Shown piece by piece: positions 11,644 to 61,236 of a DNA stretch of 64,000 nucleotides. The stretch's first letter is position 1; each line of letters opens with the position of its first letter. The stretch is from assembly GCF_003334815.1 (NCBI RefSeq), contig NZ_QOWO01000014.1; one strand, written 5' to 3'. Source of the DNA: Escherichia coli (GTDB lineage: Bacteria > Pseudomonadota > Gammaproteobacteria > Enterobacterales > Enterobacteriaceae). The notes below the pieces were generated by a model. The model was not told the DNA's origin, did no database searches, and worked only from the letters and a program-made list of their open reading frames with translations. The position numbers and the translations under genes were made by a program.

Positions 11644-12510
<867 letters not shown>

Positions 12511-12564
12511 CGGCGAGCCGGATACGCCGCAAACGTCGTATCCGGCATTATCACATCAGCGCAT

Positions 12565-18059: not shown

Positions 18060-18167
18060 TACATTACTCCCTGATGTGATGCCCGGTCGCTCCGGCTACC
18101 GGGCCTGAACAAGCAAGAGTGGTTAGCCGGATAAGCAATGTTATCCGGCTATATTGCAGGAGCGATT

Positions 18168-50898: not shown

Positions 50899-51612
50899 AT
50901 GTTATTTGCATGGATAACCGATCCTAACGCCTGGCTTGCGCTCGGTACGCTGACGCTGCTGGAGATCGTTCTTGGGATCGACAATATTATTTTCCTTTCT
51001 CTGGTGGTGGCAAAGCTTCCCACAGCACAACGTGCTCATGCGCGCCGTCTGGGGTTGGCGGGAGCCATGGTTATGCGTCTGGCGCTGCTGGCATCAATCG
51101 CCTGGGTTACGCGCCTGACAAATCCGCTTTTTACAATATTCAGTCAGGAAATTTCTGCCCGTGATTTGATTCTGCTTCTGGGTGGCTTGTTCCTTATCTG
51201 GAAAGCCAGCAAGGAAATCCACGAATCCATTGAAGGTGAAGAAGAAGGGCTGAAAACACGCGTTTCATCATTCCTCGGCGCTATCGTGCAGATTATGCTG
51301 CTGGATATTATCTTTAGCCTCGACTCGGTGATTACGGCTGTGGGTCTGTCAGATCACCTGTTTATTATGATGGCAGCCGTGGTGATTGCCGTAGGCGTGA
51401 TGATGTTCGCCGCGCGCTCGATTGGTGATTTTGTCGAACGCCATCCTTCGGTAAAAATGCTGGCGCTCTCTTTCCTGATTCTGGTGGGCTTTACCCTGAT
51501 TCTGGAAAGTTTCGACATCCACGTACCGAAAGGTTACATCTACTTCGCGATGTTCTTCTCTATTGCGGTTGAAAGCCTCAACTTGATTCGCAACAAAAAG
51601 AATCCGCTCTGA
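50899..51612 (+). CDS. ygdQ: TerC-family integral membrane protein
   Basis: 237-aa multi-[46 protein letters not shown]... Confidence 0.87.
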
Positions 51613-51749
51613 TACTCCGTACGCTCTCCTGCGGGAGGGCGTACTCACTCCTTTTACCCTCACAGTTTAAGATTTTCCTGCTTTCAAGATATATAACGTC
51701 GGTTTATAAACAGACTATTATCATAGGTAGGCCAAATGAGGATAACCGG

Positions 51750-51968
51750 ATGAAAAAATGGGCAGTAATAATTTCTGCAGTCGGACTGGCGTTTGCTGTT
51801 TCCGGGTGTTCCAGTGATTACGTCATGGCGACCAAAGATGGCCGTATGATTTTGACCGATGGAAAACCTGAAATTGATGATGATACCGGGCTGGTGAGTT
51901 ATCACGATCAGCAAGGTAACGCGATGCAAATTAACCGTGATGATGTTTCGCAAATTATTGAACGTTAA
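51750..51968 (+). CDS. ygdR: DUF903 small lipoprotein
   Basis: [32 protein letters not shown]... lipobox; about 50 percent identical to ygdI at 23618..23845. Confidence 0.85.
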
Positions 51969-52075
51969 CAAATAAGGTCAGCATCCGGCTGGCCTTAAGA
52001 TTTTTCTCTTTCCCTTTTCCCTTCCCTCTGCCATTTTTATATTCCTTATGTCGTGATTATAAAAAGGAAACGGCT

Positions 52076-53116
52076 ATGCAATATCACCGTATACCCCACA
52101 GTTCGCTGGAAGTCAGCACGCTGGGGCTTGGCACGATGACGTTTGGTGAACAGAACAGCGAAGCCGACGCCCACGCACAACTCGACTATACCGTCGCTCA
52201 GGGCATTAACCTTATCGACGTTGCCGAAATGTACCCAGTACCTCCGCGCCCCGAAACGCAAGGGTTAACCGAAACCTACGTCGGCAACTGGCTGGCGAAA
52301 CATGGCAGCCGCGAAAAGTTAATTATCGCCTCCAAAGTGAGCGGACCGTCGCGCAATAATGACAAGGGCATCCGCCCGGATCAGGCGCTGGATCGGAAGA
52401 ATATCCGCGAAGCGCTGCATGACAGCCTCAAGCGCCTACAGACTGATTACCTCGATCTTTATCAGGTGCACTGGCCGCAGCGCCCGACCAACTGCTTCGG
52501 CAAACTCGGTTATAGCTGGACGGATTCTGCGCCTGCGGTTTCGCTGCTGGATACGCTGGACGCACTGGCAGAGTGCCAACGCGCGGGAAAAATTCGTTAT
52601 ATCGGCGTGTCGAACGAAACTGCATTTGGCGTAATGCGCTACCTGCATCTGGCGGACAAACACGATCTGCCGCGTATTGTCACCATTCAGAACCCTTACA
52701 GTCTGTTAAACCGCAGTTTTGAAGTAGGTCTGGCAGAAGTCAGCCAGTATGAAGGGGTCGAACTGCTGGCCTATTCGTGCCTGGGTTTCGGCACGCTGAC
52801 CGGGAAATATCTCAATGGTGCAAAACCCGCTGGCGCACGTAATACGCTCTTTAGTCGGTTCACCCGCTATAGCGGTGAGCAAACGCAAAAAGCCGTCGCG
52901 GCGTATGTTGATATCGCCAGACGTCATGGCCTGGACCCTGCTCAGATGGCGCTCGCGTTTGTACGCCGTCAACCGTTTGTTGCCAGCACTCTGCTGGGCG
53001 CAACCACGATGGATCAGCTGAAAACTAACATCGAAAGTTTGCATCTGGAGTTAAGCGAAGACGTATTAGCTGAAATTGAAGCGGTGCATCAGGTTTATAC
53101 TTATCCGGCACCATAA
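52076..53116 (+). CDS. tas: Aldo-keto reductase (NADPH-dependent)
   Basis: 346-aa ORF MQYHRIPHSSLEVSTLGLGTMTFGEQNSEADAHAQLDYTVAQGINLIDVAEMY. Confidence 0.9.
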   Translation: MQYHRIPHSSLEVSTLGLGTMTFGEQNSEADAHAQLDYTVAQGINLIDVAEMYPVPPRPETQGLTETYVGNWLAKHGSREKLIIASKVSGPSRNNDKGIRPDQALDRKNIREALHDSLKRLQTDYLDLYQVHWPQRPTNCFGKLGYSWTDSAPAVSLLDTLDALAECQRAGKIRYIGVSNETAFGVMRYLHLADKHDLPRIVTIQNPYSLLNRSFEVGLAEVSQYEGVELLAYSCLGFGTLTGKYLNGAKPAGARNTLFSRFTRYSGEQTQKAVAAYVDIARRHGLDPAQMALAFVRRQPFVASTLLGATTMDQLKTNIESLHLELSEDVLAEIEAVHQVYTYPAP

Positions 53117-53147
53117 GATTAACGCCGGTTAAAACCGGCGTTAAATA

Positions 53148-56514
<3,367 letters not shown>

Positions 56515-56580
56515 TCAGTAAAAGCGAATGGAGGGAGATTACACGAGATAAAGAACGCGAGCGACAGTAAATTAGGTGCG

Positions 56581-56668
56581 AAAAAAAACCTGCGCATCCG
56601 CGCAGGTTGGTGCAAGAGACAGGGTACGAAGAGCGTACCGAATAATCTCACCAATCAATACCTCTGGG
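56581..56668 (-). ncRNA. omrA: OmrA small RNA (88 nt)
   Basis: Minus strand reads CCCAGAGGTATTGATTGGTGAGATTATTCGGTACGCTCTTCGTACCCTGTCTCTTGCACCAACCTGCGCGGATGCGCAGGTTTTTTTT. Confidence 0.87.
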
Positions 56669-56782
56669 ATCTTGATTGTGGTCTGCACGACGACTCTTCG
56701 CCAGCGAGAAAACGCAAAGGAATGAAGGGAAATGCAACGAGGTGTGTAAATTGTCGGTTACTGTTACAGATTGATGACCGGC

Positions 56783-56864
56783 AAAAAAAACCTGCGCATC
56801 TGCGCAGGCTGGTGTAATTCATGTGCTCAACCCGAAGTTGACTTCACCTATCAATACCTCTGGG
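56783..56864 (-). ncRNA. omrB: OmrB small RNA (82 nt)
   Basis: Minus strand reads CCCAGAGGTATTGATAGGTGAAGTCAACTTCGGGTTGAGCACATGAATTACACCAGCCTGCGCAGATGCGCAGGTTTTTTTT; shares 5' and 3' ends with omrA. Confidence 0.87.
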
Positions 56865-57077
56865 ATCACCACTTTAGCAACCTGAAGCCAAACGCCACCA
56901 GCGGTCAATCGCAACAGCGTTTCGCAAAGTGTAACCAAAGGTTTGCAATCTCTTTTTTTGTCTTACTTATTTGCGTTTGGCTCACATTCCCACGATGAAA
57001 ACACGCCACCCCTTGAACCAACGGGCGTTTTCCGTAACACTGAAAGAATGTAAGCGTTTACCCACTAAGGTATTTTC

Positions 57078-59378: not shown

Positions 59379-59499
59379 AACAAACTCCAGATAAGTGCTT
59401 TTTTATGATTACGCCACATCATAAAAAGAATAAAAAATATCGATTTATGTCGAGTCTATGCAAAAATGATATGGATTACCGGATTGCGAGAGAGCGCTA

Positions 59500-61203: not shown

Positions 61204-61236
61204 AAAAAAGGGCCGGATGTACAGCACATCCGGCCC
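61204..61236 (-). terminator. Rho-independent terminator downstream of araE
   Basis: Minus strand gggccggatgt-gctgt-acatccggccc followed by TTTTTT. Confidence 0.65.

Follow-up and report, generated by a model that had tools for sequence, protein, structure and literature searches.

The 26-bp inverted repeat between the convergent genes tas and lplT is probably the 3'-end hairpin, one without a U-run, of the aas-lplT mRNA, with the tas transcripts reading through it to a second hairpin. We infer that it serves as an exonuclease barrier, and it is probably a pause site as well, but it is not a demonstrated bidirectional terminator. The 3' end of lplT and its fold are already in a published genome-wide table, and the finding is thus an ordinary one that was already known; all of the candidate mechanisms discussed here belong to established classes.

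The repeat is at 53119-53144 of the window, by which we mean the whole 64-kb stretch of DNA that was analysed. Adding 2,919,521 to a window coordinate gives the coordinate in K-12 MG1655, where the repeat is at 2972640-2972665. A 371-nt stretch around it has a match in all but 2 of the 5426 complete E. coli genomes (5424), the annotation being tas, for an NADP(H)-dependent aldo-keto reductase (2971597-2972637 in MG1655), converging on lplT, for a lysophospholipid transporter (2972669-2973862, on the opposite strand). Beyond lplT in MG1655 come aas, omrA and omrB. The TAA stop codon of tas is at 53114-53116 on the + strand, 2 nt before the repeat, and the TAA of lplT (TTA on the + strand) is at 53148-53150 on the - strand, 3 nt before the repeat on that strand. 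The intergenic gap is 53117-53147, and the sequence-only reading was right that the repeat nearly fills it (26 of the 31 bp). On small RNAs at lplT or tas, a literature search turned up nothing beyond an overexpression-library screen in strain UTI89, in which a 4-kb region covering tas-lplT-aas (window 52076-56493) was enriched among filamentation-causing clones (PMC6206680), an observation unrelated to the hairpin.

On the + strand the junction reads CCA TAA GA TTAACGCCGGTT AA AACCGGCGTTAA ATA TTA, with arms TTAACGCCGGTT at 53119-53130 and AACCGGCGTTAA at 53133-53144, each of 12 nt and 100% complementary to the other, and a 2-nt AA spacer. It had been called a perfect 26-bp palindrome, and this is true of the arms but not of the centre, as the notation used at the time itself showed: the central AA reads TT on the opposite strand, so that 24 of the 26 positions are palindromic and the element, which we call the palindrome below, is not fully self-complementary. 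RNA from either strand folds to a hairpin with a stem of 10-11 bp and a loop of 4 nt. Its energy is -16.5 kcal/mol, which against shuffles is a z of about -4. No other perfect inverted repeat with a short spacer in the window is as long, and none besides it combines arms of 12 nt or more with a spacer of up to 10 nt, a class for which 30 dinucleotide-preserving shuffles gave a mean of 0.07 per window. When arms of at least 10 nt are allowed, the window has 10 perfect inverted repeats, each nested parse being counted, where shuffling leads one to expect about 1. Those with arms of 10-11 nt, at 61210-61236, 18124-18151, 11653-11677, 59400-59427 and 12517-12546, probably belong to other genes, as terminators or REP-like units. 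No second copy of the palindrome was found in the window with up to 3 mismatches. The only Rfam matches over it, in a scan of 51500-57000 with E up to 1, were to twister-P3 (23.4 bits against a gathering value of 39.9, E = 0.23) and to a Brucella sRNA (19 bits against 270), and both were rejected as chance hairpin matches.

Published maps place the primary 3' terminus of lplT mRNA, on the - strand, at 53111-53119 (2972632-2972640), with 2972633 = 53112 the dominant position (PMC10687069, Supplementary Data 3 and 4). It is 7-8 nt beyond the hairpin, overlapping the last tas codons, with a 3' UTR of 37 nt, and the fold listed for it is exactly the palindrome hairpin (PMC10687069). In the same table the terminus has rank 1439, is significant in 2 of the 3 LB RNAtag-seq libraries and has an R of 0.63, R being local read starts divided by the sum of local and downstream read starts (PMC10687069), so that appreciable RNA persists beyond this end. 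The lplT 3' end thus comes from one dataset (TRS, LB RNAtag-seq) and two of three replicates, and the signal is a middling one. With regard to the fold sequences in that table, the legend to Supplementary Data 3 has them begin 40 nt upstream of the terminus and extend to 10 nt past it; the coordinates show that they run from about 50 nt upstream to +1 (on both strands and in the thrL attenuator row), and the U-tract sequences from 10 nt upstream to 20 nt downstream, and 3' ends are best taken from the coordinates.

On the + strand the primary tas mRNA terminus is at 53183-53192 (2972704-2972713), with 2972710 = 53189 dominant, an R of 0.98 and a 3' UTR of 74 nt that runs through the palindrome (PMC10687069). 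Adams et al. 2021 (PMC7815308) have a single Term-seq 3' end here, on the + strand at 2972707 = 53186, which is classed as antisense to lplT. The tas 3' end is about 45 nt beyond the palindrome, and neither the Adams et al. Term-seq list nor the PMC10687069 table has a + strand 3' end at the palindrome itself. The Adams et al. list, which gives the strongest peak per 100 bp only and comprises about 1000 dominant ends, has no - strand end at this junction; lplT is weakly expressed, the read-start densities over the coding sequences of tas and lplT being 0.08-0.15 (PMC10687069). The supplements of Yan et al. 2018 have no entry for the tas-lplT locus, and a coordinate-prefix search of the TERMITe supplements gave, among the matches listed, only a Streptomyces genome. 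By the mapped ends the tas and lplT messages share about 75-78 nt of the junction, palindrome included. It had been suggested from the sequence that the palindrome may act as a bidirectional structural terminator, to be checked by mapping 3' ends on both strands. The maps bear this out for one strand only, as there is an RNA-level 3'-end structure for lplT, with its end at 53112, and no + strand end at the palindrome, tas ending at 53186-53189.

The Term-seq end at 53186 sits directly past the second hairpin, which in the flanking sequence reads ACGGCGCTG-CCAGATCCA-CAGCGCCGT. This hairpin is at 53150-53184 on the + strand, within the last lplT codons, with its core ACGGCGCTG...CAGCGCCGT at 53154-53180. 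Its energy on the + strand is -19.8 kcal/mol for 53150-53184, and is given as -21.5 for the longer fold sequence in the TRS table. Nothing is translated in the tas 3' UTR and the hairpin can fold freely there, but on the lplT strand it is in translated sequence, which leaves the palindrome as the only hairpin after the stop codon. The second hairpin is kept in Escherichia and Citrobacter, with one A-T to G-C double change in C. werkmanii. Over 22 Enterobacteriaceae 67% of alignment cells are paired; covariation is weak, with 9-59 of 500 shuffles reaching the observed value and coding constraint a confounding factor, and in a control the alignment slid by +3 scored higher than the true one. From this comparison of sequences the two-hairpin arrangement may be specific to Escherichia and Citrobacter.

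Some tas-strand transcription extends well into antisense lplT. A Rho termination region antisense to lplT is reported on the + strand at 53650 (2973171) with a Rho score of 7.6 (PMC7815308), about 460 nt past the tas 3' end, and its presence there indicates that polymerases pass both the palindrome and the second hairpin. C exceeds G on the + strand over 53190-53689 (C/G 1.2-1.9). For the - strand no such region has been reported beyond the palindrome, which weighs against the reading that we prefer below.

The sequence-only reading that there is no U-run on either side, and that this is not a canonical intrinsic terminator, is confirmed. The tails after the stem are AUAUUAAUGA on the + strand and UCUUAUGGUG on the - strand, in neither of which more than 2 U stand in a row; a Max U-tract of 2 is also what the TRS table gives (PMC10687069). 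As positive controls for terminator score we used the canonical terminators of the omrA and omrB sRNA genes, at 56581-56668 and 56783-56864 on the - strand (Rfam RF00079, 96.6 and 86.1 bits). A d'Aubenton-Carafa-type score, computed with modern energy parameters and rough only, is negative for the palindrome in every parse on both strands (-12 to -47), against +27 for OmrA and OmrB. The tail score is 0.4-2.3 for the palindrome against 4.2 for the two controls, and the run of at most 2 consecutive U compares with 6-8 in OmrA and OmrB. The GC-rich stem-loop of a canonical intrinsic terminator is thus present on both strands and the U-rich tract on neither. A simple terminator scan did not call the palindrome; its one call on the - strand was the second hairpin, because an AU-rich spacer comes after it.

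There remains the reading that the palindrome is a weak but genuine intrinsic terminator for lplT, with an imperfect U-containing tail, UUAAUCUUAU, and possibly aided by NusA/NusG, which we regard as doubtful although worth keeping in mind. The stem is strong and GC-rich, the 3' end 7-8 nt past it is at the canonical distance, and if the outer A-U pairs open there are 4-5 U within the first 8-10 tail positions. However there are never more than 2 consecutive U, the score is negative however the stem is parsed, and the R of 0.63 implies substantial RNA downstream. Also the stem starts 3 nt past the lplT stop codon, where a terminating ribosome interferes: with 2-3 nt between stop codon and stem, the ribosome footprint extends into the 5' arm, and under coupled transcription and translation the hairpin is then less likely to form. 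Finally the + strand has the same stem and a comparable tail, and yet an end about 7-9 nt past the stem is seen on the - strand (53112) and not on the + strand, for which the reported end is 53186-53189.

The 3'-end hairpin of the aas-lplT mRNA that we prefer would accommodate this difference between the strands. A stable GC-rich stem-loop 3 nt past the lplT stop would set the 3' end of the aas-lplT mRNA, with - strand transcripts either ending 7-8 nt past the stem or being trimmed back to that point by 3'-to-5' exonucleases. On the + strand the palindrome stem-loop would be internal to the 74-nt tas 3' UTR and be read through, and the end of tas mRNA would be set by the second hairpin, 10 nt further on and inside the lplT coding sequence. 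For each strand the mapped 3' end would then come after the last stable hairpin not unwound by ribosomes. The same stem with equally poor tails has a 3' end on the strand where no further hairpin comes after it and not on the other, as is predicted for exonucleolytic trimming to the first stable structure, and on the lplT strand we do have a stable untranslated stem-loop with a steady-state end just past it. The hairpin would thus be mainly an exonuclease barrier, and a pause site for transcripts that stop further downstream, with the stopping agent likely to be Rho or collision of converging polymerases rather than efficient intrinsic termination at the hairpin. An end 7-8 nt past the stem is also expected from true hairpin-dependent termination, and steady-state maps cannot tell termination from trimming.

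Collision could also be the main event, as in the overlapping bidirectional terminators of the Ju and Liu type, where a hairpin block pauses polymerases from both genes and head-on collisions, plus those of trailing polymerases, release them. Neither a U-run nor Rho would be needed for the 3' ends to overlap in this way, and we think it unlikely for this junction. The genes are convergent, there is a hairpin on both strands without a U-run, and the two mapped 3' ends are on opposite sides of the hairpin block with an overlap of about 75-78 nt; the class is described as unlike intrinsic terminators and Rho-independent, with the hairpin as pause or collision site. However the + strand end is past the second hairpin and not at the palindrome, and the Rho region 460 nt downstream on that strand shows that some polymerases escape. 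Both genes are also weakly expressed (densities 0.08-0.15), making frequent collisions unlikely.

Returning to the palindrome as the 3'-end hairpin of aas-lplT, the comparison of genomes indicates that it is under constraint within Escherichia. In BLAST searches the 31-nt gap is present in 5370 of the 5426 complete E. coli genomes, being identical in 5241 and 95-99% identical in 129. The query matched two places per genome, which we read as one locus matched on both strands, and with one locus per genome the palindrome is a single-copy element and not a REP-like repeat; a dispersed repeat of any kind (REP, BIME or other palindrome family) is ruled out. The search for the palindrome elsewhere in the genome, which the sequence-only reading had proposed, thus gave a single locus per genome, and the window has no other copy. 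In E. albertii all 26 nt are identical, although third-codon divergence between E. coli and E. albertii is 25% for tas and 28% for lplT, rates at which 26 sites would all stay unchanged with a probability of about 2-5 x 10^-4. In one E. coli isolate, 31B22CPO057 (L083 173-328), an IS1 is inserted inside the right arm, between TTAACGCCGGTTAAAACCGGCG and GTAATGGTGCC..., and the hairpin is destroyed.

Outside these species the junction is very different. We compared 80 loci encoding Tas relatives across genera, in 37 of which lplT converges on tas, with gaps from 2 to 1889 bp. Among the Enterobacterales junctions compared, the palindrome sequence is restricted to E. coli and E. albertii. There are unrelated GC-rich hairpins in one Enterobacter member (TTGCCCGGCG-CT-CGCCGGGCAA), in Phytobacter (GCCGGGCG...CGCCCGGC) and in Tatumella (TGTAGCCTGCCGCGGCAGGCTACA), canonical bidirectional terminators with an A-tract and a T-tract in Rahnella and Yersinia nurmii, and REP elements in the gap in Citrobacter and several Enterobacter; in one metagenome-assembled genome the gap is just 2 bp, with almost nothing there. 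No more than 100 nt from the lplT stop, 23 of the 37 loci have a perfect stem of 8 bp or longer with a loop of 3-9 nt, which is present and in none of 370 length-matched coding controls. We adopted this test as a stricter replacement for a comparison of best-hairpin energies within 110 nt after lplT, which gave a median of -19.1 kcal/mol against -15.8 for coding controls (p = 4e-6) on a high background.

A similar change is seen within E. coli, as about 1% of genomes have a 552-aa gene of the DUF4139 family between tas and lplT and the palindrome is replaced (L082 650-2500 in E. coli wlxctx60, L004 4042-5891, and L010). This allele has a canonical terminator after tas, GCCTGGTG...CACCAGGC TCTCTTTTCT, and a different hairpin with 12-bp arms, TTCACCAGATGG...CCATCTGGTGAA, abuts the lplT stop. 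The proteins of two E. coli alleles are 91% identical, and Superficieibacter has a 47%-identical DUF4139-family gene at the same junction, which points to the tas-lplT junction being an old hotspot for insertion and deletion.

The feature that is conserved, on the sequences compared, is a hairpin adjoining the lplT stop, whatever its sequence. That other Enterobacterales have hairpins of unrelated sequence, or REP elements, at this junction shows that structure is kept and sequence is not, and a hairpin kept without its sequence argues for a role as RNA structure and against a site for a sequence-specific protein. The alternative of a protein-binding site, also raised from the sequence, is therefore not upheld: the palindrome is conserved in Escherichia only, and is replaced by unrelated hairpins or REP elements elsewhere and by another hairpin in the minority E. 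coli allele, which points to selection on structure and not on a sequence motif. More generally a role at the DNA level, as a palindromic operator for a dimeric protein, a cruciform or a recombination site, seems to us hardly credible. The perfect 12-bp arms with a 2-bp spacer, the strict conservation within Escherichia and the IS1 in the right arm of one isolate would suit such a site, but the palindrome is flanked by the stop codons of the two genes and the gap holds no promoter-like site; for a transcription-factor operator a promoter position and orthologous conservation would be expected. It is also in single copy per genome, the orthologous junctions hold unrelated hairpins, REP elements or almost nothing, and an RNA 3' end maps right after it.

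There are also transcription start sites close to the palindrome. Two from Thomason et al. 2015, listed in PMC10687069 Supplementary Data 4, are at 2972629 (+) and 2972753 (-), which are 53108, 81 nt upstream of the tas 3' end, and 53232, 120 nt upstream of the lplT 3' end. A -10 box, TATACT, is at 53096-53101 on the + strand, inside the tas coding sequence (TATACG in at least one strain), and in the PMC10687069 data the read-start density in the 3' UTR is 2-8 times that in the coding sequence for both tas and lplT. Short RNAs of about 82 nt (+, 53108 to 53189) and about 121 nt (-, 53232 to 53112) are thus possible. That the palindrome and second hairpin form a module yielding two short, fully complementary RNAs, with the RNA pair or the duplex of mRNA ends coupling decay of the tas and aas-lplT mRNAs, is a speculation to which we give very little credence. 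If it were true, the sense/antisense pair, or a 75-78 bp mRNA-end duplex, could couple the decay of the two mRNAs by way of RNase III, for example.

For K-12 the outcome is that tas and aas-lplT gain defined, overlapping 3' UTRs, which has little import beyond annotation. The junction is also a natural example of a symmetric hairpin that marks a 3' end on one strand and is read through on the other, and predictors of terminators that take every palindrome to be bidirectional can learn from this one-strand behaviour. The changes seen from genus to genus, with unrelated hairpins, REP elements, an accessory gene and IS1, show that the space after lplT is selected for having some hairpin and not for the present sequence.

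With regard to known systems, the palindrome resembles the canonical intrinsic terminators of OmrA and OmrB in having a GC-rich stem-loop and an RNA 3' end 7-8 nt downstream, and differs from them in having no U-tract and a negative score, where theirs is +27. Overlapping bidirectional terminators have been described by Ju, Li and Liu 2019 (SEnd-seq) and in the preprint of Wang et al. 2022 (10.1101/2022.10.23.513370), and about 306 of them are cited among 704 convergent E. coli gene pairs. The tas-lplT junction is like these in being a convergent pair in which RNA from either strand can form a hairpin, a canonical U-run is missing, and the two transcripts have 3' ends that overlap over the stretch with the hairpins. 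However the end of tas is set by the second hairpin, so that the junction uses two adjacent hairpins with the palindrome marking the lplT end only, the overlap of about 75-78 nt exceeds one hairpin, and there is a Rho region downstream on the tas strand.

The third group comprises 3' stem-loops that block exonucleases and stabilise mRNA, such as REP elements and the ends to which Rho-terminated transcripts are trimmed (Dar and Sorek 2018; REP preprint 10.64898/2026.03.23.713779). REP-like hairpins that lack a U-run are an established class, attenuating transcription as well as blocking decay. The palindrome differs from REP elements in being single-copy, where REP and BIME are in many copies, and its sequence is unrelated to the REP consensus. 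REP elements do however occupy the very same tas-lplT gap in Citrobacter and Enterobacter, and like the exonuclease-blocking stem-loops generally the palindrome is stable, has no poly-U tract, and is in a 3' UTR with the RNA end a few nt past its stem.
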